This document shows, one piece after another, positions 1-64,000 of a stretch of DNA of 64,000 nucleotides. Within the stretch, counting starts at the first letter, position 1; the number at the start of each line of letters is the position of its first letter. Origin of the DNA: a virus. A model generated the notes under the pieces. It had not been told where the DNA came from and searched no databases. It saw only the letters and a program-made list of their open reading frames with translations. Where the stretch lies: positions 1-64,000 of the IMG/VR virus record IMGVR_UViG_3300006919_000043, one strand, 5' to 3'. Made by a program: the position numbers and the translations under genes.

Positions 1-3000
1 TATCATGGACTCCCAGTTAGATTCGTGATTGAAGCCGTTGCTGGTAGTGGTAAAACAACCCTCCTTAGAATGCTCTTTAGCATCCTTGCCAATGCTCATC
101 ACTGTGGTCGGAAATACTCAATCACAGCCACCGCTTTCAATGGCACAATTGCCAAAGTAATTGTTGAGGCTATGGATGCTGTAAAACCCGATGGTGCCGA
201 CTGGACATCCGGTGGTGGCACTGGAACACTGAACAGTCATGGCAAGAAAACTGTGGTCAAATTCTTCGACCATCCTGTATCGCTGGTAACTGGTGTTGAC
301 CTGTGGTTGAAGTATGCCAAGATCGTTGTCTGTAATGCTTTAGCGAATGAGGATTTGCTTGAGGATTTCACAGCCAATGTCCTAATCAGCCCCAACGGAT
401 TCAAGCGAAGAATGTCCTCATGGTATGCTCTTTGCCGACTGGTTGCCAATGTCACAAAGAAGGCTCTCGGTGCTGGATTCTATGCACCGATTGACTCCAC
501 TGTTGATGCTGAAACATGGGAGAATTTCATGGGTCAAAATTTGGGTTCACTAAGACTGTCCGAACAGCCAATTGGTGCTGTATGGACAGCCTATCTTCAA
601 CAGGCTGTTGAGGACACTATCTCACTCCGAATGTATCACTTAGAGAACCCCAGTGAAGTCGCTGTGGTCAATGCTGATGCACTGCTATGGAAAGGTGACG
701 CACTCAATGGATTCTTCGATACTGCGGAGAACACAATTCAATCGGATCTCGTCAAGATGGGATTGAGGATTGAACCAGTATCAACCAATGCTGGCGACAG
801 CATTCAAGTCATACCATACCATGCTCGTAATTACCGCACTGGCAGGTTCGATGTCAAGCGTTTGGAGATTGTTTGGCCTAAAGGCACATGGGATGAAATG
901 AAGGCTGTTCAAAACGCTTGCTATGCCATGAAAGATGATGATATTTTCACCCCATACAGTGGATTCTCAAACTGTGGTAGCCGCAAGCCGGAAAACTACG
1001 ATAAGCGTTCACAGGCCAAATTCCAAACTGATGAATGGGTATTCTCAATCAAGGATTGTAAGCGTGATATTGATGCGTTCATTCAAGCGGCTACAACAGC
1101 AGGTTTTGACTACGCTGGTGCCTTCGATGGTTCGACACCAATTGCTGGCCAAGAAGAGGCGTTTATCGCTGAAATTAACCACATTGATTGTATCTATGCC
1201 CCAGCATATTTCGACATGCCAGCATGGAGAACATTTGACTTCATGTTCTGTGATGAAGTGCAAGATATGAGTCCACTACAACATGGCCTTCTTGAGCGAT
1301 TGGTGGCTAAGGATGGGAATGTAGTTATTGTCGGAGATAGAAGGCAAAGTTTGTATTTATTTTCGGGTGCTGACAGCCGTTCTATGGACTATGCAATTGA
1401 CACCTATGGATGCCAGTCATTCCCAATGACAGTGTGCTGGCGACAGTCCGATGTGCTTGCCAATGAAGTGGTATCAGCACTGGGATATGTTGACGGTGAA
1501 AAGACGATCTTCGCTGACCACAAATCAGCAAAAACACTGGTCAATTCATGGCGTGATGGATTCCATTCATATCAACACCACATCAGTGATTTGACACACA
1601 ATGTGGAGATTGGCGACATGGTTCTATGCCGCATATCAGCACCACTGGTTCACTATGCTATGGCTACTCTCAAGTCCGGTATTCCGGTTCGATTGGCTGG
1701 TGGTGGCGACCTTGAATCTCAAGTCAAATCCATGTGGTCAAGTAAGAACAAATTGAACATGGAGAACCGCCCAATTGGTGAGATATTCACAGCGATTGAG
1801 GATTACTTGACAGCACTGTTGACACGAATCACAAAGCGGGTAAATGGTGATGAAACACTGGCTCGCCAGCATGATGATTACAAGTCGGCACAGGATATGA
1901 CAACAGCAGTTACAGCATTGTTTGGTCGCTACGGAACCACAGTCTTGACCCATGAATTATCCAGCGATGGATTCCTTGCATGGCTTGAGGATCTCTTCGT
2001 TGACCCAACCGATACTGGCGAAGGATATGTCATGTTCTCCACTGTCCACCGTGCTAAGGGATTAGAGCGTGATACTGTCCACATTATCGTTGACCGCATG
2101 ACCAAAGACAAAGAAGGTAAAGAAACTGTATCACCATGTTTCATGCTTCCGTGGTCAATGAATAACAGTGCTGAAATCCAGCAAGAATTGAACGCTGTCT
2201 ATGTCTGTATCACACGGGCTATGAACACCCAGCGTTTTTACACAAACCACCCACTTGAATCGGGTTCATGTGGTATTGCTGACATCCTGTGGATGCTTGA
2301 CAATGAAGCACCTTCTAATGATGCCCCAGTGGCCTCAAATGTTGAAGTGGTCGAAGAGTCCACCAGTGATGAAGAAGAAGCCATAGAGGCCGTTAAAATG
2401 CCTCAATTCGCATTGTTTGAAGGTGGTGTCTGTGTGTCATTGACTGATGATGCGGATAAGGCCATGAAACATATCATCGAATGTGCTGGTGAGGACTATG
2501 ACATCAGTGAGTATGAAGCGGGAACCTATGTCAATGATAACCGTGTGTATGCTAACCCAAATCACCCATTGATTGACCACGCTGTGTATCTCACAGACCT
2601 CCCAATGGGCAACGATGTTGGAGAGTCCATCAATGAATATCTCAAGGACATGCACGACATCTATGACCACGCTGACCACATCGAATTATTTGGTGCTGGG
2701 ATCCCAACATTCTATTTCCACACAACAGACTTCGCACAGCCAGTGGTTGGTGATGAATTACCAGCACCTTTGGAAAACATGAAAGAAGCCTGTTGTGTCG
2801 CCAAATACAATTTCCCCAACAGAACATGCGATTGTGAAAAAGCACCAGCAAGAACCCGCAAGACAAGTGAGGAACGCTGGCATGATGTCATTGACGCATA
2901 CTTCGCAATCGAGATTAGTGAACAACCCAGCATCAATGCCGAGCGTGAAATTTGTGATGTAGCATCAGTGTGTTATCACAAAGCACTGGCCGAAGAAGCG

Positions 3001-3294
3001 GGAATGTCCGACAAGACATTCAAGCGTGTTCTTGAAGATGCCATAGAAGCCGATTCAAACTGTCAAGGATTGAAGGAAATTGGTGTTGGGTATGTCATAG
3101 GCCACTGGCAAGATGTCATGCTATACACAGTCCACAACGGTGAAGAATTGGAGATACAAGTCACCCGTGAATTTGCTCGATCTGGTGGCGAGATTAACCC
3201 ACCAAAATTGAAGCGTGGTTCACAGATTAGAATTGCCATTCACAATCAAACATACTCATCGAGAACAGCACTGGGATTGAATGAAGAAGAATGA
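1..3294 (+). CDS. SF1 (UvrD/Rep-like) DNA helicase with a large insertion and acidic C-terminal extension; 5'-truncated by the window
   Basis: Motifs: Walker A AVAGSGKTT, Walker B FCDEVQD, motif III VGDRRQSLY, motif V STVHRAKGLE, motif VI VYVCITRA. Frame 1 is open from base 1. Confidence 0.9.
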   Translation, partial: YHGLPVRFVIEAVAGSGKTTLLRMLFSILANAHHCGRKYSITATAFNGTIAKVIVEAMDAVKPDGADWTSGGGTGTLNSHGKKTVVKFFDHPVSLVTGVDLWLKYAKIVVCNALANEDLLEDFTANVLISPNGFKRRMSSWYALCRLVANVTKKALGAGFYAPIDSTVDAETWENFMGQNLGSLRLSEQPIGAVWTAYLQQAVEDTISLRMYHLENPSEVAVVNADALLWKGDALNGFFDTAENTIQSDLVKMGLRIEPVSTNAGDSIQVIPYHARNYRTGRFDVKRLEIVWPKGTWDEMKAVQNACYAMKDDDIFTPYSGFSNCGSRKPENYDKRSQAKFQTDEWVFSIKDCKRDIDAFIQAATTAGFDYAGAFDGSTPIAGQEEAFIAEINHIDCIYAPAYFDMPAWRTFDFMFCDEVQDMSPLQHGLLERLVAKDGNVVIVGDRRQSLYLFSGADSRSMDYAIDTYGCQSFPMTVCWRQSDVLANEVVSALGYVDGEKTIFADHKSAKTLVNSWRDGFHSYQHHISDLTHNVEIGDMVLCRISAPLVHYAMATLKSGIPVRLAGGGDLESQVKSMWSSKNKLNMENRPIGEIFTAIEDYLTALLTRITKRVNGDETLARQHDDYKSAQDMTTAVTALFGRYGTTVLTHELSSDGFLAWLEDLFVDPTDTGEGYVMFSTVHRAKGLERDTVHIIVDRMTKDKEGKETVSPCFMLPWSMNNSAEIQQELNAVYVCITRAMNTQRFYTNHPLESGSCGIADILWMLDNEAPSNDAPVASNVEVVEESTSDEEEAIEAVKMPQFALFEGGVCVSLTDDADKAMKHIIECAGEDYDISEYEAGTYVNDNRVYANPNHPLIDHAVYLTDLPMGNDVGESINEYLKDMHDIYDHADHIELFGAGIPTFYFHTTDFAQPVVGDELPAPLENMKEACCVAKYNFPNRTCDCEKAPARTRKTSEERWHDVIDAYFAIEISEQPSINAEREICDVASVCYHKALAEEAGMSDKTFKRVLEDAIEADSNCQGLKEIGVGYVIGHWQDVMLYTVHNGEELEIQVTREFARSGGEINPPKLKRGSQIRIAIHNQTYSSRTALGLNEEE

Positions 3295-3330
3295 TAAGCA
3301 CTGGGTAATTGGACACGAAAGCCGGAGGAT

Positions 3331-9707: not shown

Positions 9708-10303
9708 ATCTATTTTTCCTCCATCGTTTGGCGTGGCTTGCTGGCATTATGCACTGCGACAAACATGTGCCTAAGATGATTGTTGAAACATGTCAAATGC
9801 TATCAACGGCTCTCATGAAGCACACAGGACTGGGAGAGTTAATGCCGATGCGTGTTGACGGTAAGACCCCCTATTCGGGCAATAGTTATCCACACCATCC
9901 CAGCACTAAGTGGGTGGGCTTGACAAGAGCAAACTACCAGTGGGCTGTCGATCTGGGAATGTCATTACTCAATGAATACGAAAAGAGATTCGGCAAGACT
10001 CATGGTTGCACTGATGCTCTCCATCATTTCGCACAAAACGCTGATTGGATTCCGGACTTGACTGATGGAGTAATTACACCTATGGCACTGGCTATGGCTA
10101 CCCAGTATGATTACATCATTGAGGAACACCAGCACACCGACCGTGTGCAAGCATACCGTGATTTCTATGTCGCTGATAAGATACGATTCGCTAAGTGGGA
10201 AAAGGGCACACCAGCCCCACGCTGGTGGACAGAAGCCCTTGCTATACCACAGCCCACCGAACCCAGCAAACCGTTGGTTAAATACCCCGAACCCACTGGG
10301 TGA
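9704..10303 (+). CDS. pyrimidine-dimer DNA glycosylase / T4 endonuclease V-like protein
   Basis: MNLFFL..HCDKHVPKMIVETCQMLSTA..HPSTKWV..EYEKRFGKTH, typical of this phage family. Confidence 0.8.
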   Translation: MNLFFLHRLAWLAGIMHCDKHVPKMIVETCQMLSTALMKHTGLGELMPMRVDGKTPYSGNSYPHHPSTKWVGLTRANYQWAVDLGMSLLNEYEKRFGKTHGCTDALHHFAQNADWIPDLTDGVITPMALAMATQYDYIIEEHQHTDRVQAYRDFYVADKIRFAKWEKGTPAPRWWTEALAIPQPTEPSKPLVKYPEPTG

Positions 10304-10307: not shown

Positions 10308-10940
10308 ATGGCGAAGAAGAACAATATTCCGAAAGCACACCGAAATCCACCAAAACCAAAGGCGGAAAAGAAGAAGCGAAAGAAAAACCGCTTCGTTGAT
10401 TTAGAACAGATCCGAAGGTTGTTCACCACTAATCATTACGATGAAGAAACGCCCGAAACATTTGTCGTGAGCGAAGTTTTCTCTTGCTACAAACACCCCA
10501 AAGGCAAGCACAAGCCACTGGCATCTTCAATCAAGCAAGCCATCCGAAGAGAATGGAAACGCTGGGAAAAGCCCACATCAAAGGAGAGGCGACAGAAACA
10601 ATACAATCCTTACGACAACCCCGATATTACCCACCACATGAACCCAAGTGATAGGGCAACGATGATGAGGGTTGAATACCCTCAAGGAAAGCATGTTTAT
10701 GATAATTTTCAAAAGCAAAAGAATCCGCACAATGCGCTGGGTAATGTTGATGCTTTAGCACGAAAGATACAGCGAGATCTGACAAAGACAGAACAGCAAA
10801 TCCAGCGACTAAAGAAGGAATTACTTGCGGCTCAAACCAACCAATTGCGACTACAACAAAAACAGGGCAAACTCAACAATTTCCTTCAACATGATATGAC
10901 CGTTGAAGTAATTTCTCTTGTCGAAAACGACCTGCAATAA
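10308..10940 (+). CDS. basic hypothetical protein with C-terminal coiled coil
   Basis: ATG 10308 after GGTGA; TTAAATACCCCGA upstream; Lys-rich N-terminus. Confidence 0.65.
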   Translation: MAKKNNIPKAHRNPPKPKAEKKKRKKNRFVDLEQIRRLFTTNHYDEETPETFVVSEVFSCYKHPKGKHKPLASSIKQAIRREWKRWEKPTSKERRQKQYNPYDNPDITHHMNPSDRATMMRVEYPQGKHVYDNFQKQKNPHNALGNVDALARKIQRDLTKTEQQIQRLKKELLAAQTNQLRLQQKQGKLNNFLQHDMTVEVISLVENDLQ

Positions 10941-13642: not shown

Positions 13643-13917
13643 ACCTTCAAGAAGTAATTGCTAAACTACAATTTATACTCGATGATGAGGAAATTATGTC
13701 TTACATTCACGAAAAAGAAGCGGCGCATGAAGATTTCAATGGTGAAAAACTGGCGTGGAATGAACAGAAAGGCTGGACTGTCCAAGAGGTTCTTGATGCA
13801 CAGGCCGAAGCCTATAATCAATTGAGTGCTGGTAATGAAACCTTAGACAGATCTGACTTCTCCGATGCGGAATGGGCTGAATGGATTGAAGAGATTTTAC
13901 AGGAGGAATCGGCATGA
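13639..13917 (+). CDS. small acidic hypothetical protein
   Basis: ATGA coupling; very E/D-rich. Confidence 0.6.
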   Translation: MNLQEVIAKLQFILDDEEIMSYIHEKEAAHEDFNGEKLAWNEQKGWTVQEVLDAQAEAYNQLSAGNETLDRSDFSDAEWAEWIEEILQEESA

Positions 13918-15080: not shown

Positions 15081-15130
15081 AGAATGGTTAGATCTGGTGT
15101 TTCGGCTCATAACATGGGATTGGTGATAGG

Positions 15131-24460: not shown

Positions 24461-25408
24461 ATGATAACATATAGAGAACCCCGACCATATCCCGTGCCCG
24501 ACCATGACGATTTATTCTCATGTTACAACTGGCACCCCGATATGCCGGACAATGTTATTCTCCGTGCGAGTAAATCATCGGTGGGTGACTTTACCTTCTG
24601 TAAGCAACAATACGCAATCAGCAGGGTTCTCGGCATGAAAGAGCCACAGAATGAGAACATGCTACGAGGAACAAATGTCCACGATAGTGTCGAATTGTTT
24701 TACCAGCGTGTTGATGTTGACAAGGCAAGTGAAGAACACGACCTTGAAAGATACTTTCGTGATTGTATTCCACATTCCAGTGAGATACGCTCGGCTCAAG
24801 ATAATTTCTTCTTAGAAGAGGACTTACACATTGACAGATTCTTAGAGAAAGAGATTCAGCGTTTTAACGCAAGCGACCCACAACACTTCTTACCAACTGG
24901 CAACGAATTGGTAATTAACCATGTTCATGAAATAGAAGTGGATGGTATATCACAAAGGGTGCATTTCACCGGTATCATAGATAGGATATTTACCAACCCC
25001 GATGGGTCATTACACATACACGAATTGAAAACTGGTGCATGGAAAGATAGCGCAAGTAAATTTAGAAACATGAGAAAGGAAATGGCTTTCTATGTATGGT
25101 TGCTAAGAAAGTCCGACCCAACCAATGCAATCACACACTGGGGTTGGGATCACACTAAAGGTGTCAAGAATACCGACACCTTTGACGCTGAAATGTTCCG
25201 TTATGTTGAGGCTGTCCGTGCAAAAGAGATAGGCGAAATGCTGGGCGACATACAGAATCTAATCCGCACGCACAGGAAATACAAAGGTGATGATGATATT
25301 AGCATGTTCCCCTTGTTACCATCGGGTGCCCAATATATGATATGCGATCCGTGGTGTGGCTTGAAAGAATTTTGCCCACGCTACCACCAACACATAGGAG
25401 ATGAGTAA
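24461..25408 (+). CDS. Cas4-like PD-(D/E)xK nuclease
   Basis: FCKQQY, RGTNVH, GIIDRI, HELKTG, C-terminal CDPWCGLKEFC (Fe-S staple). Confidence 0.85.
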   Translation: MITYREPRPYPVPDHDDLFSCYNWHPDMPDNVILRASKSSVGDFTFCKQQYAISRVLGMKEPQNENMLRGTNVHDSVELFYQRVDVDKASEEHDLERYFRDCIPHSSEIRSAQDNFFLEEDLHIDRFLEKEIQRFNASDPQHFLPTGNELVINHVHEIEVDGISQRVHFTGIIDRIFTNPDGSLHIHELKTGAWKDSASKFRNMRKEMAFYVWLLRKSDPTNAITHWGWDHTKGVKNTDTFDAEMFRYVEAVRAKEIGEMLGDIQNLIRTHRKYKGDDDISMFPLLPSGAQYMICDPWCGLKEFCPRYHQHIGDE

Positions 25409-31289: not shown

Positions 31290-31514
31290 ATGCCTTACCA
31301 ATGGTGGGAATGTGGCACCAAGAAGTGCGACAAGAAAAAAAAATGGTCAATTGCTAAAAGGCCGGGATGCCGAAACTGTGGTCGAAAAAAGAATATGGAG
31401 ATAATGGAACCTCAACCTCCACCACCGAAAGACTTTTTCAAGCAAGACCGTATAGAGGCCGCAGATCGTGTGTTAAAGGGCTGGATTGATACCTTCAAGG
31501 GTCGCTCAAAATAG
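31290..31514 (+). CDS. small Zn-ribbon protein; last gene of the + arm
   Basis: CGTKKC..CRNCG; stop overlaps the convergent MTase stop. Confidence 0.6.
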   Translation: MPYQWWECGTKKCDKKKKWSIAKRPGCRNCGRKKNMEIMEPQPPPPKDFFKQDRIEAADRVLKGWIDTFKGRSK

Positions 31515-32861: not shown

Positions 32862-32872
32862 AAACCAACGCC

Positions 32873-33034
32873 TCACTTTTTCGTATGCCTAAGACCCGAC
32901 CAGCATATCTCTTGTAATTCGGCATCATCTTCAAAGATAGTGAAATTCAATTCATCGGTGTTAATTGTATCATAAGCAATCCAAGTCACAATAAAGCCAA
33001 CTATCATTCCACCTACAAACAAATATCCTATCAT
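32873..33034 (-). CDS. small single-TM membrane protein (53 aa, not in ORF track)
   Basis: MIGYLFVGGMIVGFIVTWIAY then acidic tail; ATGA overlap with the upstream gene. Confidence 0.65.
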   Translation of the reverse strand: MIGYLFVGGMIVGFIVTWIAYDTINTDELNFTIFEDDAELQEICWSGLRHTKK

Positions 33035-37900: not shown

Positions 37901-40900
37901 TGGGAATTGCTGTCCTACCGCTAAATCACTGTGTAAAGAAACAGCCTTTGTGCTGGTAACAAGATATTCTTCATTCTTGTTGTCTTTCCTTTCGCTATTA
38001 GTTTCGACAACCATACCAAGTCTTGGCGATAAGTCGGATTGGACTTGTCTGTGATCGGCTATCTCGGATAATGGAATTGGCATTACGCCTCTTTCAGCAC
38101 TTGTTCCGCCCGTAGCGTCTTTCATGTTTAATGACCGACCCCAATTGTTGGCTGGATAGTGGATTAAATCTCCACTGCTTTGAGCATTGTCTGTTGGGTG
38201 TGCGTTGATATGCAGGTTGTTTCCTTTAGGTGTGGCTTGACTAATTGGATCGGAACCTTTATTCAACACTTTAGCATGTAAGAATTTAGCATTCGCACCT
38301 GTTAAATCCGTTTTGTTTGTTCTTTCAGCAGTGATTATACCTGCTGGCATCGCTTTGGGAGATACCATACCTAAACTTTCAATTTCTAATGTCCTACCCA
38401 TACCGACCTTTCTTTCCTTTGGAGTCCACTTATCGTTAGACAACCTTGTGTAGCCTTGTAAATCAAATGCTTCGTTAGTGTGTTCGCTCATTACTACACC
38501 AATAGGAACGGTTCTATGTATTCCATCATTCAGTGCTGATGTTTGCCAATCGCCACCAACAGGCAATTTGTTCATGGTGTCATGTATTCCTCCGTCAAAC
38601 CTACCCGAAGCCTGTATCTTTTGTTGATTGACGGCATCAACATTGGGCTTACCGGCAAGCATGTTCAAAGCATCGCTACCGCTTCGGAAACCAAAGGCTC
38701 TTACTGGCAACCTACGACTCCAATCAACAGCAACCATAGGATTTCTTACTGATGTTACCTCATTCCAAACATCATTGTTTTGACTATTATCCATGTCCAA
38801 AATAGAACGGAGAATGTTCTTTGTTGGGTTTAAGCCATCACCTATGCCCTCACCACGACTCTTTCTCCTTGTGTAACCGTAGTAAGAAAAGTGTGGTCGC
38901 AATTCAAGTGTTCCTTCGGCTTCATTAATACCATCATGCCCCATCAAAACTGCACCTGCGGCTCTTTGACCCAAAACACTGCCGTGCCCTGCGGCAAGGA
39001 GTCCGTTGTAGCCGTAATTCTGTAACCACTGGAACGCATATAGCCTCTCAAACGGCATAGAAACCTTTGGTGTTCCTTCTTGTTGGTTTCCACCCGCCTC
39101 AACATTTGCATTTCTTAACATCAAGCCCCGTAGTGGAGGACTGTTGATACCCTTCGGCATACCTGCACTTCTATACCGGAATGTCATGTAATGCTCACGG
39201 CTTGTGCCAAACAGTGCAGGGTGGCTATACTCCGCAAGCCATGTGCATAGGAAAGCATCGGGGGTAGCACCGGAGTTAGTGCCATCAGCCTTGACTAAAG
39301 CCAAGTCATTGTGTTCAGCATTTCTATCAAAATCACTTGACGATGCCAAGACTTGTCTTTTTGGTATTGGTGAAGCGGAGGCATTCACAAGATCTGGGTC
39401 ATGTGCTATAAGAGGCGGCACCGTTCCTAACTCCGTTCCTACACGGGGTTGTAACCAACCAGCAGGGTGTCCATAATATGTGTTAGTGCATCGGATTTGC
39501 AGACCGCCGCTTTCTTTCTTTTGGAAGTTTTGTAAAGAAGGCTGTGGGCGACCGCCCATCAATAAATACTGACTTACGATAAAGCCATTTAATGTAAATT
39601 CTTCACCTGCGTTGTGTCTATTTCCTACAACTCTTGATGTTGCTAAATCTAAAGCCACAGCCGCATTGTGAGAGGCATTACCATACCCACCAAAATTCTG
39701 TAATTCTTTTCCTATAACGCCTTGAACAAAGTGTTGTTGTTCTTTAGCACCTTCTGTGTTAGTGTGTTCTTGACCCGGTGCGAATAAAATGTCATAGTTA
39801 TCTTTTGGCGCACTACCGAAATACTGATGATGGCGAGGCAAAGTGTTATTTTTGATTTCACCATGTGGTAATCCATCAGCCGAGAAAGAACCTGCGTTAG
39901 AAGAATGACCCCTTACTTCTAATGTATCAAGATAATAAGATGTTGCACCTTGATTGCTATTTGCTGATTGGAAGCCCCAGTGTTTGTTCTCGGACTCGGC
40001 TTCAAACATCAAGGAATAAGCCGAACCACTTGACCGATGCAATTGCCTACGCATAGAAATTGGTGTTCCTCTTACCGTCATTGGCGTTACGAATGAATGC
40101 CCCTGCCTACCAAATCTAATTCGGTGGTGTGCTAATTTGTATGGTGCTAAACCTGCATTACCATCAAGCACTGAACCCCTTTCCACATGATCTGATAATC
40201 TATGAGATGCAAACAGTCGTGTGGTGCCGCTTGGTTTAGCACCGGGTGTATTGTTCAAGTCTAAACCAAATTTGCTGGTCAAAGTATCGTGAAGAATACG
40301 AACAGGATGGAAATGGAGAACCATATCGTTTGTGTCAAACTGTGAGGCTTCGTCTATTGTTGAATATGGACTTAGCCCAGCCTCAATTACCCCCGCTTTA
40401 TCGGGTCTTGGTATGCTCAAACCACCCATTCCCCAAGATAAGTGTCGCCATGCTTGCACCCTATCATGACCGGAATATACAATTATGTTACCCGGTATCT
40501 CATCTTGACTTGGCAAGCGCAATTGCAGGTTCGATTCTATACCACTGTTTGGAGATGAAGGCAGTGTAGTTTCTTGTTTGGTTGCAGGATCTATTCGTGA
40601 TTGTTTGTAATTGTAATCTCTAATGACTGTGCCAAAAGGTGAGCCACCTTCAAGAATTAACTGGGCACCAGTATCGTCAACTACTGGTAGTGAATCAAAG
40701 ACCATTTCTTCATTTGGTATCTGTAATCCTTTGATTTGTTCAGTGTTGACATCCCTTACAATTCTATATGGCCTATGCACATACCCAGCGTTAAGGTGCG
40801 GTTGTCCGTTTGTTGATGTTAATGTTGACAAAACGCCCGATTTCAAACTATATTGACGCAGTGCTTGATGTTTGTCTATATCACCCGTTGTCATGTTTGT

Positions 40901-47200: not shown

Positions 47201-49613
47201 CGGCATTGTTGTTACCTCCACCAAGCACAACTTGTGTGTCGCTGGCCGCACCACTGTATGATGCGGCACGGGTGAAAGTGGATGATGATTCACGCATGGC
47301 TCTTATCCAAAAACCACTTACAACTTCATTGATGGTTAATGCTTGGACTTTATTTTTAGCCCCCCAATCAATAGCGTTTCGGCTTTCATAGTCTTTCATC
47401 TGTGGTCTATTCATAGCCGTCATTGTGGCATCCAACACCAATTCCATAGATCTGTTAGCGGGTAATGGTGAACGCTTTTTAGTGCTGGTCGCTAAACGCT
47501 GTTCAACATCGAAAAACATTGATGGGAATAGTGGCAACTCAACTAAAGCACGGGTGGATGCGTAATAGGTTGATGTTTGCTTATCATTTCGCACCGATGG
47601 GTTATCCGCACCAATCACCTTATCTTTCCATACAGGCAAGAAAGAATGCTCGGTTCTATCGGGCTTGATGTCAATACCACCTTGCCCTAACCCAGCCATC
47701 GTTAGGCTCACTGACGGTGAACCCAAATCACCTATCTCCTTGATAGCATACCCATCAGTCAATCCAAAATCTCTTTCGGCTATTCTATCTGTTATGTCCA
47801 TCAATTGTGATTTACCACGAATTAATACACCACCAGTGTTAGACTCACTGTTTGGTGCTATTTCCTCAACACGCCCTTTCATTGTAAGCAACTTGACTTG
47901 ACATACATGTGGACTATCGCTATTTTGTGTAGTGGAAAGCGATTTGAGAATACCACTTCGTTTGCGGTTCTTGGGGTGTATTAATAATAAATTCAAATCA
48001 TTATCTTTAACATTGTCAATGATGTCAAATTGTTCAAAGGCTACTGCTCTTACGGATGTTCGGGTTCTATTTATGGGTTGAACAGGGTGATTGCCGTCAA
48101 CATTACCCGTTGCGGCTGGCACTTTTTCTTTCTTAGGTGAAAGAACGGACAGTGTATGATATGACGATTCACTTTTCTTTACCGGACTAATGGTATTTGC
48201 TATCGCTTTCGGTCGCCCGTATGCACTAAACTTAGGATTCAGTTTTACATCTCTTTGGTTTTGAAAGAAAAAACTGTCGTAAATAATTGTGTGAGGGCAA
48301 TTAGATATGTCAATGAATGGAGAAAGTGTTTGGTCGCCTGTTGGGTTGACCCTCATAACATGGTCTTGAGGGGGCTTGTTGAAATTTGCGGAGGGTAACG
48401 ATATAAGCCCACCGGGTGCTTCGATGCGAAGAATATCGGGCAACGGTATTGTTGATTCAGGATCGGTTGGGTCGCCCCCGTCTGCGATAAAACGGGCATC
48501 TGTGAACGGTCGTTTCAACCAATCAGCAAGTGTTCTATTGCGGATTGCTTGTGTTGAAGTATCTGTAAAAACAGTGTTTGAGTCCGGCACTGTCTTTTCG
48601 ACAATCAACCAAGATGGTCTTTTCTTGTAAAAACGCTGTGAAGAATTGATACTTACGATGTCATTATGAGCATTTTGAAACTGTGTCCATATTGTTGGGT
48701 CAACAATTGTTAGCCAATCCGGTGCATCTTTGTATGCGGCCATCACTTCACCGGTCAAATCTATGGCATTGTAGTGAACCTCAACCACTTTTGGCAAACC
48801 GCCTCCAAATTGACATTCATCGGGAATAAATATTTTGGCGATTCTTGACTTCTTTTCGGGTGTCAAGTGTCGTATGTATTCTTGGTTTGTGGGTTTTGTT
48901 GGGTCGTTTGTGTCAAACAACGCAGTGTGTTCTGTGTCAAGACCCTTTAACAAAAACGGCCTTATGTCCTCAACAGCGATTGCCAAAATCGAATCAGCAG
49001 TGCTTGAAGGATAACTACCGGTTTGGTCGGTAAGTCCTTGACCACCCTGCACAATTATTGATGAAGCATTCTGTCCATTGAGGCTTTCATAACTTGATAC
49101 AATACTTTCAGTAATCACATCTAAAGCCTCTCCTTGATATACTGTTTCAGTAACATTGATTTTATCGTTTAATGAAACAACACTACCAATAGAAGCATCT
49201 TCATAGGTTGACTCAAATCTATCAGCAATACCTTGAACCGTGCGTGTAACCACTTCTTTGTTAGGCTGGGGTAATTGTGCTAAGAAAAAGTGCCCTTCGA
49301 CCTTATTGTATGTGGTGAAACCACATTGTCCGGCAAAATCGCTAACTGGTTCGGGTAATGTCGTAGCCATACTAAAAGCCGAACCTTCACCAGCCCGCCT
49401 TTGTTGGTTGCCCCCATCAACTCCACCCCAATTCAAACCTTGACCCGGTCGTGGTTCTTCGGGTCTTTCGGGTTCTTCGGGTGGTCTTTCGGGTTCTTCG
49501 GGTGGCCTTTCCGGTTCTTCTTCTCTCGGCCTTTCCGGTTCTTCTTCGGGCGGTCTTTCCGGTTCTTCTTCTCTTGGCCTTTCCGGATCTTCTTCATGCT
49601 CATGCTCGGACAT
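44286..49613 (-). CDS. giant tail-associated protein with N-terminal E/P/R repeat and C-terminal LamG/ConA-like domain
   Basis: Start ATG 49613 (TGATG overlap); YTFSFFFKP..YQHIVIT..ILYVNG..GVLSEMAMWN..VTNLY. Confidence 0.7.
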   Translation of the reverse strand: MSEHEHEEDPERPREEEPERPPEEEPERPREEEPERPPEEPERPPEEPERPEEPRPGQGLNWGGVDGGNQQRRAGEGSAFSMATTLPEPVSDFAGQCGFTTYNKVEGHFFLAQLPQPNKEVVTRTVQGIADRFESTYEDASIGSVVSLNDKINVTETVYQGEALDVITESIVSSYESLNGQNASSIIVQGGQGLTDQTGSYPSSTADSILAIAVEDIRPFLLKGLDTEHTALFDTNDPTKPTNQEYIRHLTPEKKSRIAKIFIPDECQFGGGLPKVVEVHYNAIDLTGEVMAAYKDAPDWLTIVDPTIWTQFQNAHNDIVSINSSQRFYKKRPSWLIVEKTVPDSNTVFTDTSTQAIRNRTLADWLKRPFTDARFIADGGDPTDPESTIPLPDILRIEAPGGLISLPSANFNKPPQDHVMRVNPTGDQTLSPFIDISNCPHTIIYDSFFFQNQRDVKLNPKFSAYGRPKAIANTISPVKKSESSYHTLSVLSPKKEKVPAATGNVDGNHPVQPINRTRTSVRAVAFEQFDIIDNVKDNDLNLLLIHPKNRKRSGILKSLSTTQNSDSPHVCQVKLLTMKGRVEEIAPNSESNTGGVLIRGKSQLMDITDRIAERDFGLTDGYAIKEIGDLGSPSVSLTMAGLGQGGIDIKPDRTEHSFLPVWKDKVIGADNPSVRNDKQTSTYYASTRALVELPLFPSMFFDVEQRLATSTKKRSPLPANRSMELVLDATMTAMNRPQMKDYESRNAIDWGAKNKVQALTINEVVSGFWIRAMRESSSTFTRAASYSGAASDTQVVLGGGNNNADFSHFGTYLLVDSILPFIQGNLHGEGGFDGTTSGNYVTAPLATEPFDNTGFVVTVGEGIISEKGIRLHIHQALTVGTESRLYFNAYQDFDDDNLNYAGLKSIITAGLPVVMGSWLTNAGGIGVGFPPLNYVIPNTNTLLEGTFSALNAGPVGANSTESTVAQSFIGPLEKTFALGKTTTNGVVDRSGIHLDPNDPNTVLIYDGPNMEGFAFDPGHYLYSQDTKPLVPPVECRSGYLSLKGKRSDGISLDWVRPMKIKLGDVASAGTVSKFEDAVNELIRRINQAGHPNAKNLQGGSAFDPPPLFTNAKGNHDAPASVDTGSHMGYLRAFLGQGVESRDGEEGLSIVIHSTVPGASGRNFAVWLNNNSPYPYRPIQAVGHGGLLATNSRSYQAGSFPAPLPLGMDGETHIPITTFQGGVHGAVSDSDNNLRTYEGVGQEFSFNTVALPKFENGNPMPLYDPESQPTLMVERKALDILYRIKGKITRERKALILVDNEYLGEFDGIVTGVQNNPPSKVSGVGSCIGLFNTQPLDKTLGKKWKDLFYDNTGALKEVPIKLLNPLVDANGILFFGGGHTGVTFDISDGTDNDYSDFYTHHYSKGPAGHSGFQNLEGVQTSAAVLDFSELKNEDTVNSNTYRGMHHQVNTVVTGALPDAANKLDARNTCVWYLPMSQEELGQPQARKKLAIDTIHGSKVYVNRSDSVALVAGPTADPSCKGVLSNGHTSAFAIALHDKDLVTNNNSNTVQVPSLVPMQREWVDNTESQYTFSFFFKPGNTGNWSNQAWGNGPVYHGFINTGATDYKGLGVSILSKQGSSSGVFSYRVIVMTPHTNGTTVRLSAEITDRPKDEYQHIVITRSPTSAQAILYVNGAIPADAPWTLSEPLGLDSGRHLPQTIGVGNALASGLFGKASYMHCVGIDLLHPTSFPGYYKGTTGNGNDDPRYWKGVLSEMAMWNYGMTSQQVTNLYNARNTW
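49445..49600 (-). repeat. coding tandem repeat (EEPERP)n
   Basis: About 7 imperfect 18-24-nt units, e.g. ggttcttcgggtggtctttc. Confidence 0.85.
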
Positions 49614-52390
49614 CAAATCCCCCACTTATCTTCAATGTATTGTCTTACATCTGCTATCTCAACATTAGTCAATTCCTTTTTGTAAAACAAAATTTCATGA
49701 ATTAAAAAGCCACTTGGGGCAGTGCCTTGAAAGCCAAATTCTCCCCTTCCCCTGCTGGCAATAGAACCAAATAAGTTTATTCCAGCATTAAATACTTCGG
49801 AGAATGATTGAGGGTTTCCTGTCGGCCAATTGCCTTGCGGATCTTCTAAAACAGGGTGAAACTTAAATTTACTTTGACCGGGATTGCCAGCAAAAAAAGC
49901 ATTAAAAACTGCCGGATTACCACCTGCTTCGGTATAAAAACGCCATTCACCGGAAAGATTTGTTTGTTGTGGATTACACCGAATAGCGACCATTGTTGGT
50001 GTTCCGGCTACTGGTGTTCCAGCCGATGGTAATGCAACCGGACCGAAACCATCAGTCGTCAAGTCCGGACCTGCGTTAGCGTTAGGAAATCCAGCGTTTA
50101 TTTGCTGGGTTCTCGCACTCAAATCGGGCGTTGTGGAATTATGGAGATTTGACGGTGTTTGGTCGCTGTAAGGCGATGGTGTTATGACAAAAATGAATGT
50201 GTATTCACCGTTGGTGTGATTTACTTCATGGTGAAATGCACTAAACTGTTGCTTTCCTTGAGGCACTAACGCAGGGAGGCTTGGAATATAGCCATAATAG
50301 CCATTTGGATTATTGGGATCGAACGGTGTCATACCAAATCTGCTACCAAACTTGTTTATCCAACCACTAAGCGCACCTGCACCCCTTCTAATTCTCGGTG
50401 GGATCCACATTAATGGGTTTTCATCGGGTTGTAGTGGTGGATTTTCTTCGGAAAATTCATCCGCCCATGCTGAAAGCATCTCATTACTGTGTAAAAAAGG
50501 CACATTAGGTTGTCCGTTTTGATTACTGGTGTAATCGCTTAACGCCGCCGCTTTGAGCGAACCCAATCCGTTAGTGGAGGGGTTGTTAGGCACAAAGATC
50601 CACGGAAACATAAACATTGGACCGGAATAGAACACTACTTCGGGGTGAAGCGTTGATTTGCTTTTCCACCATGATACTTCATTTACTTGCTTTAGAACAG
50701 TTTGACCTTGAGCGTCAAACATATATCGTGGGTCATTACCGTCTAACCAAAGAATCAACTCATCCATAAAAGGTGCGGTGACATCGGCAGGGTTGAATAT
50801 ACCAGTCTGTGCTGTCGGGGTTGTCCTATTTGCTTCCGTGTTTCGTGATGTTTTACTGACCCAATACGCATCGTTTCCAAAGCCCGACTTATCAGTAAAG
50901 AATTGACCTTGAGTAAATCTCGCTCTTGTCATTTGGCCTTTCTTTCTCAACTTACCACCGTTGTCAATAATCAAATCGCCATTACCTAATGTGAACCAAA
51001 CAAGTGTGTTATCGGTATGCTCAAACAAGAAGCCTTGAGTATGAGGTTCAGCATCGGTATCAGCATCACGCAATATACTGTTTTGCACAATTACCAATCC
51101 ATTAAGAAAATCCAGTGCTACGATTCTCACCCTTTCGATAGGATTTCCTATTGGCTCTAACGATATTCCACCATCGGTATCATCATCAATAGGGTTGTAA
51201 GAATATGAAGTGAAGGGCAAACCGGTGATAGGGTCGGTGCCCGATGTGTTGACTATTGCATTTAGGTTGGTCACTGGCAAACCATCTGTATGATAAGTGG
51301 CCTTTGTCACAATGGTGCCGATGTCTAAAATTTTACTGTTCCACCAAGTTTGAAGCGGCAATTCTTCGACGGGTATTTTCAACAAGTAAGATGCAATCAA
51401 TTCTAAAGCGGTGGCTTTGCCGGAAAAATGATTTCTTATTTTGAATGTTCCATAGTCCATACCTGTGGCTAAAGATATGGGGTTGGTTATCGGCTGTGTT
51501 ACTGATATATTGGTGAAGTCGTAAGCCACGCATACCATCGGTATTGGCATATTGCTATCCTCATCACCTGCCCCATCAACAAGTGGTGTGCTAAAAGCCG
51601 GTGCTTTGTTATTGTAAAAATACAAGTCCGGAACATCAATTTCATCTTCAAAATCCCATAGTCCTATCGTATCTTGTGTTTTAGTAAATGGTTGTAAATT
51701 CGGTGCAACAATACCCCTGCTAATACGGACACTTTCAATAATTCCTCTATACTGTCCTCCTGTTCCACCAATGTAAAGATCTGATGAGAAAGACTGTGTG
51801 GTTCGTGTTTCTCCGCCAAAATCCAATTCACCAAACAACTCACCGTTGACAAATACTCTTAGCCCATCCCCTGTAAATTGAGCATTGATGTAATACATTG
51901 GGTTTTCACTTAAAGCCAAATCATGGGGCATAGTGCCCCCATTGTTGTAACCGACTACACTATATTGGTCTGTTCTTGGCGACCAAAGGTGCGGAATTGT
52001 TAATGTTTCAGTGACTTCATTATTCCCAGCGTTTCGTGTCAAAACACTGAAAATAAGATTATCGCTTTGTCGTATGCTACCGAATTTCAGTGTATAGCAA
52101 CCCTCTTTATGCACTATGACACCACCACTATCGGGTATAACATAGGCTTCTATGGTAAATGCACCAATCAAATTGTTTAGCGGATTACCTTCGTTTGGTA
52201 TGTGTCTTTGTCCTATCTTTGGCTCATCGCTGTTATACGAAGTAACCTTGTTAGTCAAGCCCTTTTTTTCCGGATGGCGACTTGAAAATAAATCAACACC
52301 GGTTTCTCTAAATGACCCAGTGGGAACCACTATACCATCGGTATAACCGTTTAGCCTAACGGCCTGTGTTTTTACCTTCTCCACCGCCAT
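49613..52390 (-). CDS. tail protein with two LamG/ConA-like domains
   Basis: FTIEAYV..VFVNG..LYIGG..GIIESVRIS..GLWDFE; second domain LWLDG..EILFY..V.QYI..KWGI. Confidence 0.75.
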   Translation of the reverse strand: MAVEKVKTQAVRLNGYTDGIVVPTGSFRETGVDLFSSRHPEKKGLTNKVTSYNSDEPKIGQRHIPNEGNPLNNLIGAFTIEAYVIPDSGGVIVHKEGCYTLKFGSIRQSDNLIFSVLTRNAGNNEVTETLTIPHLWSPRTDQYSVVGYNNGGTMPHDLALSENPMYYINAQFTGDGLRVFVNGELFGELDFGGETRTTQSFSSDLYIGGTGGQYRGIIESVRISRGIVAPNLQPFTKTQDTIGLWDFEDEIDVPDLYFYNNKAPAFSTPLVDGAGDEDSNMPIPMVCVAYDFTNISVTQPITNPISLATGMDYGTFKIRNHFSGKATALELIASYLLKIPVEELPLQTWWNSKILDIGTIVTKATYHTDGLPVTNLNAIVNTSGTDPITGLPFTSYSYNPIDDDTDGGISLEPIGNPIERVRIVALDFLNGLVIVQNSILRDADTDAEPHTQGFLFEHTDNTLVWFTLGNGDLIIDNGGKLRKKGQMTRARFTQGQFFTDKSGFGNDAYWVSKTSRNTEANRTTPTAQTGIFNPADVTAPFMDELILWLDGNDPRYMFDAQGQTVLKQVNEVSWWKSKSTLHPEVVFYSGPMFMFPWIFVPNNPSTNGLGSLKAAALSDYTSNQNGQPNVPFLHSNEMLSAWADEFSEENPPLQPDENPLMWIPPRIRRGAGALSGWINKFGSRFGMTPFDPNNPNGYYGYIPSLPALVPQGKQQFSAFHHEVNHTNGEYTFIFVITPSPYSDQTPSNLHNSTTPDLSARTQQINAGFPNANAGPDLTTDGFGPVALPSAGTPVAGTPTMVAIRCNPQQTNLSGEWRFYTEAGGNPAVFNAFFAGNPGQSKFKFHPVLEDPQGNWPTGNPQSFSEVFNAGINLFGSIASRGRGEFGFQGTAPSGFLIHEILFYKKELTNVEIADVRQYIEDKWGI

Positions 52391-56298: not shown

Positions 56299-58569
56299 TC
56301 AAATGATGTAATACGGGTTATGCTCTTGAACCTTTAGATGTCGGACAGCAAACTCCACGCTTGCAGTTACCGGTCCTTTATCGTCGGGCATTGGATGTTC
56401 CGCTTTCATCAAAGTATAATCTTCAAGTGTAATTGTGCCTCTTTGTCTTGTGCCAGCCGAGCCGGGTTTGTTCAAAACCAGTGTGCAATCGTTTGTATTT
56501 ATGTTGTGCTTACGGGTTCTTAATTCCTCAAAGAACCTATCATCTTCAACCAGTGCGGTGAATGTGAATGTGTATTCTCTTGCCGCCTCCGTGATTTCCG
56601 AAGCATACTGTGTAGCGGCTTCTTGCACCTGATCTGCATCAGCATACGCACCATCTGTGCCTCTAATGTAAAACTGTGCGGTGTTACCATTAGCAATACT
56701 GATGTTGACATCTTTTGCTCGCAATACGGTAGCACCAAAGGCACTGAATAACATGTGCTGGAATAGGTATGGCTTTTCGCCATTGACAGCGATACCGGAC
56801 ACACTACGCTTGGTTATGTCATTTGCAGTGTTCTCAAACATACGGTGCGGTGTAATGAATTGGTTGTTGGTGTCTTTGAACATGCGTGTTGCTTCAAAGT
56901 TAGTGGTCATTTTTAACTCACCTTCACTGTCAGCAGTTAGACTCAAATCACTCACTTTACAACCGGAGAACACCCGTAGCATTTGGTTTGTGCCCGGTGT
57001 TGTATCGGTGGTGCGGAATGATTGCTCAAAGCAAAAGGTCGGTAGTGTAGTGTAACCAAAGAAATTATGCTCAACACCATTCTTTAATTCGCCAGTGGAC
57101 AATAGTGCTGGTGAGCCACGCTCATGCGCTACTGTGCCGTCAAGAGTATATTGTAGTCTTTCCACACCACATGATGCGGCTACATGGTCGAATAAGAATG
57201 GTTCTTCGACATAGATGTAGCCATGATCTTGACCGTTAGCACTACCCTTTCCGATAACCCTACGGATTTCATGTTTGTTTAATGTGGGTGCTGTAACATC
57301 AGCACCCGGCACTTGAACAGTATCTTTGTCGAAGATTTGAATGTAATCACCAAGAGTAAATTTGTCGGCATTGGTTGTTGAAAGTTTGATGCGTATATCG
57401 CCAGCAGTTACAGCAAGGGTTGGTTGAGCCAGTAAGTAAAGTGGCACACCGACAGTCTGTGCCCTTAGTTTAGCATCTGTATCAATGTCAGCCAAGCCAT
57501 CTATTTGTGCGTTAGCCAGTGATGTATATGAGCCAAGTAAAGGCGCACCTGCGGCACTTAGCACCTTGAACAGCCCTGCGGCTGGTGCATCTTCAAAGAT
57601 TGAAGCAAAGCCAGTGATGTTTCCACCAGCAGTGCTGATTTGTGCATCGGTAGCACCTGCCGCCGCAACGGTCAATCCACCTATCAATACATCTTTGCCA
57701 ACATGTCCAGCAGTGTCAAGACCTGCTACACCTGTTCCAGCATTGTCAATAGCCGTTATAGTGGTGTCAAGAACCGGTGTGTCAAATGTGTTTTGTGCGG
57801 CGTATGTCATGTCGGTGACATTTGTTTTGAGATTTAATGGGGTTGCTGTTATAGTTTCCGAAGCATCACAGTGAGCAAACTCACCTACGCTCTTTGCAGT
57901 GTGCCCACCCAAAGCATATTTCCACATCTTCAATGAATGTGCATTCAAGTCCATAGAACCACCAGCAAGAGTTTCCTTGCCCGATGTTAGAACATTCACA
58001 TCACGCCCCATGCCGATGATGTGTTGCTTTCTAACATCTATCTCCGGTTCGGGTAGTGTGAATGAGTTAAGCAATCCTAAGAATTGGTCGGTTTTGACTC
58101 TTTCATCGCCACCACTTGCTACTGCACCTGCTGTGCAATTGTGGTCGTATGTTGGAACACGCAGTGAATCAATAATGAAGAAATCGCCTGTGTTTGCAGT
58201 GGCCGGATTGGTTGCCAATCTCGGTGTGACGGTTATGGTAGCATCATCGTTTGCAGTGATGTAGTATGTTCGCTTTGTTGTTGGAAAGTGATCGGCAGTG
58301 AAAGCGTTGCTACCGCCCGATGAATAGATACGCAGTGTAGCACCAATCAACATACCATTGGGCACCATCATGTGCCCATCGGTGTCAACCCAATACATGG
58401 CTTCACCGATAGTAATTATACTACTGTTCTCGGTGTTGCCGTTGGCTGTTGACCAGCCCGATGTGGCACTACCTCCGCCCGCTACATTGGTTCCTTGTCC
58501 TACTAATCCGGTTTCTTTGCCCATAGATATTTCAATTAAATCTCCCTTGAATACTTGATTTACTGGCAT
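56299..58569 (-). CDS. major tail tube protein with large insertions
   Basis: Position after the terminator; GCKVSDLSLTA..GELKMT..FEA and C-terminal tube-like strands. Confidence 0.7.
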   Translation of the reverse strand: MPVNQVFKGDLIEISMGKETGLVGQGTNVAGGGSATSGWSTANGNTENSSIITIGEAMYWVDTDGHMMVPNGMLIGATLRIYSSGGSNAFTADHFPTTKRTYYITANDDATITVTPRLATNPATANTGDFFIIDSLRVPTYDHNCTAGAVASGGDERVKTDQFLGLLNSFTLPEPEIDVRKQHIIGMGRDVNVLTSGKETLAGGSMDLNAHSLKMWKYALGGHTAKSVGEFAHCDASETITATPLNLKTNVTDMTYAAQNTFDTPVLDTTITAIDNAGTGVAGLDTAGHVGKDVLIGGLTVAAAGATDAQISTAGGNITGFASIFEDAPAAGLFKVLSAAGAPLLGSYTSLANAQIDGLADIDTDAKLRAQTVGVPLYLLAQPTLAVTAGDIRIKLSTTNADKFTLGDYIQIFDKDTVQVPGADVTAPTLNKHEIRRVIGKGSANGQDHGYIYVEEPFLFDHVAASCGVERLQYTLDGTVAHERGSPALLSTGELKNGVEHNFFGYTTLPTFCFEQSFRTTDTTPGTNQMLRVFSGCKVSDLSLTADSEGELKMTTNFEATRMFKDTNNQFITPHRMFENTANDITKRSVSGIAVNGEKPYLFQHMLFSAFGATVLRAKDVNISIANGNTAQFYIRGTDGAYADADQVQEAATQYASEITEAAREYTFTFTALVEDDRFFEELRTRKHNINTNDCTLVLNKPGSAGTRQRGTITLEDYTLMKAEHPMPDDKGPVTASVEFAVRHLKVQEHNPYYII

Positions 58570-61278: not shown

Positions 61279-61656
61279 TCAGCGACCGCCAGTAATAATG
61301 ATTTCAGCCGTTGCACCGTCTAAATCACTGCTGTTGTTGGCTAATTGAATCAAAGCAAGTCCACCTGCCGCCGCCGCAGTGGGCTTGTCAACAGCGTTAC
61401 CACTGGCTTCTGTGCTACTGGCAAACGCCATTATTTTCTTATTTGCATAATCGTATCTTAGTAAGAGTCCACCAATTCCTTTGTTTGGTATGGTTTTTAC
61501 AATAATATCAACGCTATCGGGCGTTCCGACATACGCTGTTGCGTCAAATTCTTCTCCGCCTGTTGGATAAGAATTGTCAAATGTTACATTAACAAAAGAG
61601 GTAATTCTAGATCCTACTACATTGTTTCTTTTCGACTGTGTGATAGTTAGTGCCAT
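61279..61656 (-). CDS. putative minor capsid/decoration protein
   Basis: VTFDNSYPTGGE..YD....KI.AF; downstream of the MCP. Confidence 0.55.
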   Translation of the reverse strand: MALTITQSKRNNVVGSRITSFVNVTFDNSYPTGGEEFDATAYVGTPDSVDIIVKTIPNKGIGGLLLRYDYANKKIMAFASSTEASGNAVDKPTAAAAGGLALIQLANNSSDLDGATAEIIITGGR

Positions 61657-62742: not shown

Positions 62743-62758
62743 CTAAAGCCCCCCAGCA

Positions 62759-63178
62759 TCAAGCACTTGGTCCGTAGTATAACAGTGTAATTCTGTGAAC
62801 ATCATCAGCAACCGAAGCATCGTTAGCGGTCTTGAATAATACTCTTGCCGCCGCATGACCCACTTCTGTTGGTGGGTGGTCGTTTTGTGTGGTGTTGACG
62901 ACTGATAGAACGGATAGAACACTACCGCCCAATCCGTCAGCACCAGTTATTGCGTTGTTGTCAACTGCACCATTTTTATCTGCAAGGTCGAATACTGTTG
63001 CGCTGTTGTGAGAACCAACTACTACATCAACCACAAGCATTTGAAGGCCGCCTGTTGGGGCGTTAGAGCCAATTGGTGCTTGTAGCCAAGAAGTGTTATC
63101 GGTGTTGTTAGACCCCGACCACATTCTAATTACGCTTACGATTTTACTGCCTGTTCCTTTTACATTTGTGTTAGCCAT
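62759..63178 (-). CDS. putative capsid-associated protein
   Basis: Directly after the MCP, GGTGA RBS. Confidence 0.6.
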   Translation of the reverse strand: MANTNVKGTGSKIVSVIRMWSGSNNTDNTSWLQAPIGSNAPTGGLQMLVVDVVVGSHNSATVFDLADKNGAVDNNAITGADGLGGSVLSVLSVVNTTQNDHPPTEVGHAAARVLFKTANDASVADDVHRITLLYYGPSA

Positions 63179-63210
63179 ATTATCACCTACTTATTATCTC
63201 CTATTTAACC

Positions 63211-64000
63211 TCAACTCAAGTCACGGATTTTACCGCTTGACTTGAAGAACGCTTGCCATAATTCACCCATTGTGTGGAACATACCCATTTGACCGAGCCT
63301 GTTGATTCCGAATGGATCGCCTGTTTCAATACCGGACTCATGGTAAAGTGTTGGTTTTGCAGTGCAGAACCACATGTAGTCAGTATCAAGGAAATATAGT
63401 CTTGAAGAACCGCCAGTGCCCTTGTGGACATCCTTAGATGGGATAATTGGAACACCATTGTATGTTGCTACCATGAATCCACCTTGAATACCCGGAACAC
63501 CTTTGACACCATTGACACCCGGCACAACTCTCTTCATTTCCATAAAGCGTTGTTGAGGCTGTAACAATTGTTGGATTGTTTCAAGAGTATCGTAGCCAGT
63601 TAAGATAACCTTTGGCTGGCCTCCGGCTTCCCAAATTTGACGGAACATTCCGTCAAGAATATTGAGAGTTAGTGGCCTATCGGTTCCGTTGCTTGCACCT
63701 GCATCAACTTGAGCATCATACCATTGAGCCGAACCTGCACCTGCACCATCTCTTGTTAGGTTGTAAATGTTGTGAACGCTTGCCCCATCAATGTCACCGA
63801 AAGCACTTGTTTCAGTAAATGATGAAGAAGTGATACGGTCAAGAGATTCAAAGTCATTTCCAGCCACAGTGTTAACATCGCTAAGAAGCATCTTGTTGAT
63901 GTGTTCTGTGTGGTGTTTTGCCATTTCCATCTTCATGACAGCCCTTGCATCGCCAAGTCCATCGTCTTTGTCAGCAAGGAACATAGCAGTTTCAGTCAAG
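63211..64000 (-). CDS. major capsid protein (HK97 fold), N-terminus outside the window
   Basis: SLDRI, LT...LD, GG.PKVILTG, TYNGVPIIPS, RLYFLDT, GKIRDL; frame open to the window end. Confidence 0.88.
   Translation of the reverse strand, partial: LTETAMFLADKDDGLGDARAVMKMEMAKHHTEHINKMLLSDVNTVAGNDFESLDRITSSSFTETSAFGDIDGASVHNIYNLTRDGAGAGSAQWYDAQVDAGASNGTDRPLTLNILDGMFRQIWEAGGQPKVILTGYDTLETIQQLLQPQQRFMEMKRVVPGVNGVKGVPGIQGGFMVATYNGVPIIPSKDVHKGTGGSSRLYFLDTDYMWFCTAKPTLYHESGIETGDPFGINRLGQMGMFHTMGELWQAFFKSSGKIRDLS

Follow-up and report, generated by a model that had tools for sequence, protein, structure and literature searches.

Why would a viral genome that has lost nearly every copy of a set of short words keep a handful of them, each lying across a GATC? 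The question is raised by IMG/VR virus record IMGVR_UViG_3300006919_000043, a linear record of 77,726 bp (44.6% G+C, estimated 73% complete), and in particular by its bases 1-64,000, the 64,000-nucleotide stretch that is called the window here. An earlier note, made from the letters of this stretch, held that the YCWGR pentamers (Y, C or T; W, A or T; R, A or G) and the tetramer CTAG are nearly absent although hundreds would be expected, and that host nucleases select against them while modified GATC protects the copies that overlap it. A computational follow-up in this record and its relatives bears out that core: methylation shielding of overlapping sites is well supported. The reading we think probable is that the virus methylates its own GATC, most likely as Gm6ATC (m6A, N6-methyladenine) through P0002, a Dam-family methyltransferase that it encodes, and thereby shields purged words from host restriction.

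Purged words and their survivors

Eleven YCWGR and three CTAG remain in the window, and every one of them overlaps GATC, in each case the GATC that the earlier note had named. Over the whole record the count is 14 of 14 YCWGR and 3 of 3 CTAG (the final part beyond the window adds three YCWGR), and a search of the record for copies off GATC found none. The null model consisted of 200 codon-preserving shuffles of the whole record, which predict 427 +/- 16 YCWGR, 8.0% of them on GATC, and 125 +/- 10 CTAG, 4.8% of them on GATC. At an 8% baseline, the probability of finding 14 of 14 YCWGR on GATC is about 4e-16. Comparison words are plentiful in the window (543 YCWGY, 544 RCWGR and 153 CCGG), as had been claimed for the first and last of these. 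The overlap nearly always takes the same form: 13 of the 14 YCWGR in the record read GATCWGR, with two shared base pairs, and only the site at 48457 shares a single one. The survivors in the window, with the start of the purged word in brackets, are:

3179..3185: GATCTGG, a surviving TCTGG (3181) with a 2-bp GATC overlap
9950..9956: GATCTGG (9952)
10776..10782: GATCTGA (10778)
13850..13856: GATCTGA (13852)
15091..15097: GATCTGG (15093)
36958..36964: GATCTGG (36960)
39391..39397: GATCTGG (39393)
40189..40195: GATCTGA (40191)
48457..48464: TCAGGATC (minus strand GATCCTGA), the only YCWGR survivor with a 1-bp overlap (48457) and an outlier across the clade
51778..51784: GATCTGA (51780)
56628..56634: CCTGATC, minus strand GATCAGG (56628)
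31817..31823: GATCTAG within the P0002 gene (CTAG at 31820); the site, GGATCTAGATA, is conserved in the related loci G002, L115 and L138
37738..37744: CTAGATC (37738)
61607..61613: CTAGATC (61607)

All three CTAG are thus GATCTAG on one strand or the other. The GATCTGR sites are one-sided across the record, with 11 on the plus strand and none on the minus; this parallels ATCTG against CAGAT (53 vs 13) and is not seen in relatives of 50% GC.

The purge is much broader than the YCWGR and CTAG set first described. AGCT, GTAC and GCWGC, earlier called scarce, have a count of zero in the window, as does CCWGG, and CGCG and ACGT occur once each; the shuffles predict 251 AGCT, 223 GTAC, 209 ACGT, 121 CGCG and 100 GCWGC for the record. 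GATC is itself reduced, with 129 copies in the record against 241 from shuffles. Further words at zero are GTAGA, CAGAG, CTCAG, GAGAC, CGTCC, GCTCC, GGGAC and GGCCC, together with about a dozen 6-bp palindromes that include TTTAAA, CATATG, GAATTC, GATATC, GTATAC, ATGCAT, TTCGAA and TGATCA. In all, more than 25 unrelated words stand at or near zero. A second shielding word was sought among the survivors of the other purged words, and only one pattern turned up: the three AGTTC copies in the window are all AGTTCT, and the purged target behind AGTTC is probably longer (AGTTCV / BGAACT).

Recurrence in related viruses

Scans of IMG/VR yielded about 90 related loci, and relatives whose proteins are 64-93% identical repeat the pattern. 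G002 (86 kb), whose polymerase is 93% identical, has 16 of 16 YCWGR and 3 of 3 CTAG on GATC, and its sole CGCG reads GATCGCG. All YCWGR of the 50%-GC lineage (74-87% identity) are on GATC, and 100% of survivors are so placed in L002, L003, L007, L008 and L029-L033. More distant relatives without any GATC provide a natural control: in them the YCWGR count is exactly zero.

A pooled test then separated the two kinds of overlap. It counted distinct sequence contexts in 22 YCWGR-purging loci, which hold 564 distinct GATC sites, with expectations taken from flank composition. YCWGR outside GATC was not found at all. GATCWGR, with its 2-bp overlap, was seen 68 times against 73.6 expected; GATCCWGR, with its 1-bp overlap, was seen once against 20.8 expected, GATCCWGG never, and GATCCWGY 36 times. 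A 2-bp overlap thus brings full relief and a 1-bp overlap none, with 48457 as the lone exception. Two other words extend the pattern: CTAG survives in 10 distinct copies, every one of which reads GATCTAG (they represent about seven independent events, and one site is conserved within the Dam gene), and of 9 distinct CGCG copies 4 read GATCGCG (3 of 3 in L154 and 1 of 1 in G002). Three YCWGR off GATC in L006 were considered as counter-examples and rejected; they lie at 7265-7525, in the last 260 bp of a 7.5-kb contig, and this tail does not align to the otherwise 99.7%-identical L008, so that it is probably a chimeric contig end, an artefact.

Could the pattern arise with no methylation at all, through flank requirements of the nucleases, a Vsr-like very-short-patch repair bias (an alternative raised in the earlier note) or chance? 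A point in favour is that CTAG is rare in many prokaryotes for reasons other than restriction. A flank preference, however, is untenable because ATCWGR was never found without its leading G. HATCWGR (H, any base except G) does not occur in the pooled loci, yet GATCWGR is as frequent as neutrality predicts; to explain this, a nuclease would need to recognise 'not GA' two bases beyond the word it cuts. Repair bias can account neither for the complete loss of more than 25 unrelated words nor for a dependence on GATC, and chance would have to produce counts that the shuffles never came near. The pattern also shifts lineage by lineage in step with methylase content. An explanation without methylation is, in our view, scarcely credible.

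The relatives also show that YCWGR is the union of at least three host specificities, because the purges of CCWGG, TCWGA and TCWGG/CCWGA vary independently from lineage to lineage. No lineage examined has any CCWGG; TCWGA alone is depleted in L129-L139 and L154, TCWGG/CCWGA alone in L158 and L166, and CCWGG is the only YCWGR member purged in G001 (100 kb; L023-L027). Among partial purgers of TCWGA, between 1/3 and 5/7 of survivors lie on GATC, well above the 8% baseline. G001 leaves TCWGA, TCWGG/CCWGA, CTAG and GCWGC unpurged, is still without AGCT, GTAC, CGCG, ACGT and CCWGG, and carries an additional canonical C5 methylase of 603 aa (C1:15253-16971); it may follow a different strategy or have a different host.

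Methylase genes and the marked base

What allows GATC to stay? Two genes of the window are central to this question:

31506..32876, minus strand: P0002, a 456-aa DNA methyltransferase of the Dam family (D12 class) with a DPPY motif
25401..26621, plus strand: P0001, a 406-aa beta-class N6_N4 methyltransferase with motif IV TSPPYW (N4-cytosine type)

Across the clade the Dam slot contains either a P0002 orthologue or a divergent C5-like protein of 420 aa, and the N6_N4 slot contains an SPPY type, a DPPY type or nothing. GATC is kept in every locus with a D12 or C5-like gene, and the 40 loci with neither have no GATC. L125, which has only a 49%-identical SPPY homologue of P0001, holds no GATC in 17.7 kb, and L140, with only a DPPY N6_N4 enzyme, likewise holds none. 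When every 4-5-mer and palindromic 6-mer was scanned without bias across about 40 lineages, GATC proved to be the word that best tracks the D12/C5-like genes. The word scan gave no clean target for the SPPY and DPPY N6_N4 enzymes; GATC headed their lists only because these enzymes co-occur with D12. With restriction as the selective agent, as we infer, GATC is itself a restricted word in these hosts; since its retention follows the D12 and C5-like genes, it is one of these enzymes that permits it, and the SPPY enzyme does not.

P0002 is likely the GATC methylase that gives the shield, to judge from its co-variation with retained GATC, its sequence and its modelled fold. It matches Pfam PF02086 with 37.6 bits, above the gathering score of 22, and a six-frame search of the record agrees. 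Its architecture is that of a distant Dam member with an N-terminal extension of about 100 aa and a long insert, and its best PDB sequence match is DpnM. Its motifs follow the alpha-class order (X, I, II, target-recognition region, IV), with NWEGGK, GGSGS, NPD and DPPY invariant in nine homologues. For an AlphaFold model with a mean pLDDT (predicted local distance difference test) of 71, all 26 Foldseek matches at E<=1e-3 are E. coli Dam, DpnM, T4 Dam or Mcbe1, at target-normalised TM (template modelling) scores of 0.53-0.64.

The enzyme that marks GATC might instead belong to the host: a Dam-like methylase of the Poseidoniales, the probable hosts (see below), could act during replication and leave the viral methylases to serve other targets. 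Across marine archaeal metagenome-assembled genomes (MAGs) GATC methylation is reported, and Euryarchaeota and Poseidoniia are reported to show CGCG, GTAC and, weakly, AGCT methylation (PMC8919816); relief is also seen in L002, L003, L007 and L008, where no D12 gene was found in the sequenced region. These D12-less contigs, however, carry a C5-like methylase in exactly that slot. The complete purge of GATC from the 40 loci without D12 or C5-like genes would be needless if the host protected viral GATC, and in a Poseidoniales single-cell genome, which is incomplete, the sole D12 match is on a viral contig. Marking by a host enzyme seems to us quite improbable.

If the mark is viral, as we prefer, shielding would proceed in a few steps. 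Many host restriction-modification systems would press on the lineage and drive their target words from the genome. The virus would retain GATC since its own enzyme methylates it, here most likely P0002 to give Gm6ATC; in sister lineages that gene slot is filled by the divergent C5-like methylase. A host nuclease would be blocked at any purged word whose overlap with GATC brings the methylated base within it. In TCWGA+TC and CCWGA+TC the final A would be the Dam adenine, and a blocked copy would escape selection, leaving GATCWGR at neutral frequency and every other YCWGR gone.

The geometry agrees with an adenine mark. If the mark is Gm6ATC, the methyl-adenine of the lower strand forms the outer A of TCWGA or CCWGA in GATCWGR, whereas in GATCCWGR it is outside the site; the split of 68 to 1 between the two classes follows from this placement with no further assumption. 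CGATCG is absent from nearly all lineages despite the mark (0 vs 6.4 expected in the window). PvuI-type enzymes are indifferent to Dam methylation, but a methyl group on that cytosine blocks them, so the purge of CGATCG is easier to reconcile with a marked adenine. Several other enzymes (XbaI, ClaI, NruI and TaqI) are blocked by overlapping Dam methylation; unlike those cases, the present one is an evolutionary signature in wild viral genomes, with archaeal nucleases as the presumed agents, and it includes GATCTAG and GATCGCG, which have no adenine of the mark in the site. A closer parallel is Hpy188I (TCNGA), which cannot bind TCNGm6A (PMC3045582): the Dam adenine of GATCWGR is the outer A of TCWGA/CCWGA, the same geometry as TCNGA+TC.

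Several observations weigh against m6A made by P0002. First, the GATCTAG (10) and GATCGCG (4) survivors share only a C:G pair with GATC, so that m6A lies one base outside the word; they occur in D12-bearing lineages, among them L123, whose N6_N4 slot is empty. Second, TGATCA is absent from G000 and G002, where about 10 are expected in each (0 vs 9.9 in the window), and is also zero in L128 and L154 (fewer than 3 expected each); BclI is blocked by Dam methylation, which makes this absence a difficulty. Third, relief is also found where the C5-like gene replaces D12, and the mark may therefore differ between lineages. Finally, P0002 reaches 43.4 bits against NCBIfam TIGR00571 (dam), under the curated cut-off of 114.85, and most relatives are 10-20-kb fragments with incomplete methylase inventories. 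As a separate observation, AGATCT occurs 23 times in the window against 9.9 expected.

Some of these points would fit a mark on the GATC cytosine instead. Such a mark (GAT-m4C or m5C; N4- or 5-methylcytosine), set by the SPPY enzyme P0001 or another, would mimic Y(mC)WGR, (mC)TAG and (mC)GCG cognate methylation on one strand. It would fall on the one pair that the CTAG and CGCG survivors share with GATC, a non-adenine mark fits the purge of TGATCA, P0001 has an N4-cytosine-type motif, and a C5-like methylase occupies the Dam slot in sister lineages. The earlier note had favoured GAT-m4C, on the grounds that m6A would miss both the 48457 site and the CTAG survivors. The second half of that argument stands. 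The first does not: 48457 is a clade-wide outlier rather than evidence for m4C, because GATCCWGR holds the cytosine inside the site and is nevertheless purged, GATCCWGG included. CGATCG should also have been spared, since PvuI/XorII-type cognate methylation falls on this very cytosine. P0001 fares no better as a GATC-specific m4C methylase: L125 has an SPPY-type enzyme and no GATC, and relief appears in contigs with an empty N6_N4 slot (L003/L122, and also L123, which itself has 2 of 2 GATCTAG). The C5-like lineages show no surviving GATCTAG, with only about 3 expected. A cytosine mark is therefore unlikely in our judgement, and m6A from a Dam-like enzyme is the most likely mark, which leaves the GATCTAG and GATCGCG survivors unexplained.

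P0001 itself matches PF01555 at E 3.8e-49 and has the (S/T)PP(Y/F) motif IV of the N4-cytosine beta class; we take its TSPPYW as a sign of N4-cytosine activity. Its PDB relatives are CcrM, TTHA0409 and M.PvuII, and GATC is probably not its target. A Cys-rich insert at residues 288-349 (CCAECG...CDC) is missing from the 77%-identical G002 orthologue (C1:20173-21183), a difference that may reflect a swap of target-recognition module. The 420-aa replacement in the Dam slot (L008/L119-L122) has motifs FSAGGG, SSPPCEG and ENP, to be set beside the C5 motifs I (FxGxG), IV (PC) and VI (ENV). Its profile finds exclusively C5 methylases in the PDB (best E 1.4e-3), and 3 of 7 members match PF00145 weakly; its AlphaFold model, with a pLDDT of 38, was too low for a fold search. 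The 50%-GC lineage had at first appeared to be without methylases when P0001 and P0002 were run by tblastn against the first relatives; Pfam and jackhmmer showed divergent ones in the same slots. 'PPC' open reading frames in L142-L153, considered as short methylases, proved to be an unrelated basic protein. The 50%-GC sister lineage also has a PAPS-reductase-like gene right after the polymerase (L008:12284-13237, L029:18466-19422), a gene that this record lacks; genes of this kind are frequent companions of DNA-modification modules.

PIP-like C-terminal tails (QKTFDDWW, QQRLF, QRSLFEW, QQSLF) are common to the three methylase types; they lie at 26595-26618 in P0001, at 31509-31523 in P0002 and in L008:14137-15369 and L008:20192-21451. 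The QxxLF tail is conserved in 7 of 9 D12 homologues. These sequences suggest that the methylases are tethered to the viral sliding clamp.

The virus, its host and the meaning of the footprint

Which virus carries this footprint? The left arm (plus strand) encodes a UvrD-like helicase, a clamp-loader-like AAA protein, a family-B polymerase, a PD-(D/E)XK nuclease, the N6_N4 methylase and an ERCC4/HhH nuclease; the right arm (minus strand) encodes the D12 methylase, giant tail proteins, a tail tube, an SU10-type capsid protein, a prohead protease, a portal and a terminase. Haloarchaeal tailed viruses have polymerases about 24% identical to this one. The capsid protein matches nine records only, all archaeal tailed viruses, with about 32% identity to haloarchaeal siphovirus capsids. 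A 106-kb contig in the single-cell genome of an uncultured Candidatus Poseidoniales archaeon encodes a 53%-identical relative of a conserved replication-block protein, which makes a Marine Group II (MGII) archaeon the most likely host. The scan of species genomes with this protein also returned two bacterial MAG contigs, probably mis-binned; a scan with the D12 alignment found no relative in the species genomes, and megablast of 20 kb found no match in a phage collection. A halovirus-like capsid, portal, protease and terminase module, an archaeal-type replication module and the MGII association are the traits of magroviruses (PMC5434244), which this virus also resembles as a marine metagenomic contig of at least 78 kb with its polymerase, clamp-loader and nuclease block apart from the structural block. 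It is most likely a magrovirus-like tailed virus of marine Poseidoniales.

A second kind of one-sidedness is found in the record, apart from the GATC shield. Several words are strongly strand-polar, with the plus-strand counts CAACT 87 vs AGTTG 2 (at 4103 and 9127), CCTAC 53 vs GTAGG 2, CTACT 44 vs AGTAG 3 and CACCTG 33 vs CAGGTG 3. The same orientation dominates on either side of the gene-orientation switch at about 31.5 kb, though the words are rare in the left arm, and G002 has the same orientation. Phage T7 escapes the Type III enzyme EcoP15I through sites in one orientation, and the words here are alike in that respect.

The footprint has its closest kin in phage restriction-site avoidance combined with an orphan Dam (T4, T2, P1), where short, mostly palindromic words are likewise purged and a viral Dam-family enzyme lets GATC stay. 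It is unlike those cases in that more than 25 words are at or near zero, the virus is archaeal and the exceptions map exactly onto the methylated word. Reported marine archaeal methylation motifs, among them CGCG, GGTAG and TCGCGA in MGIIA (PMC9516812), agree with the words purged here. A literature search on site avoidance with overlapping methylation found no account of such a footprint, and the portion of the magrovirus literature covered by a term search makes no mention of methylases or restriction. That overlapping methylation blocks restriction is textbook knowledge; what appears new is its clean evolutionary imprint, with slot-swapped methylases, in viruses of uncultured archaea.

These uncultured hosts rank among the surface ocean's most abundant archaea, and the purge list is a catalogue, drawn from sequence, of at least 25 host restriction specificities that vary by lineage; the GATC exceptions tell in addition by which methyl group each nuclease is blocked. 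The survivor-overlap test could be run on any virus collection and could give targets for orphan viral methylases. Tentatively, the footprint may go beyond Dam overlap and be a natural read-out of the methyl sensitivity of Poseidoniales restriction enzymes, in which the C:G pair is marked too or instead, or the CTAG and CGCG nucleases are blocked by m6A one base outside their sites, together with clamp-coupled methylation through the PIP-like tails. Clamp-coupled viral methylation, if true, would account for the complete shielding. The swaps of methylases in fixed slots, D12 for C5-like in one and SPPY, DPPY or nothing in the other, make an arms race legible from metagenomes.

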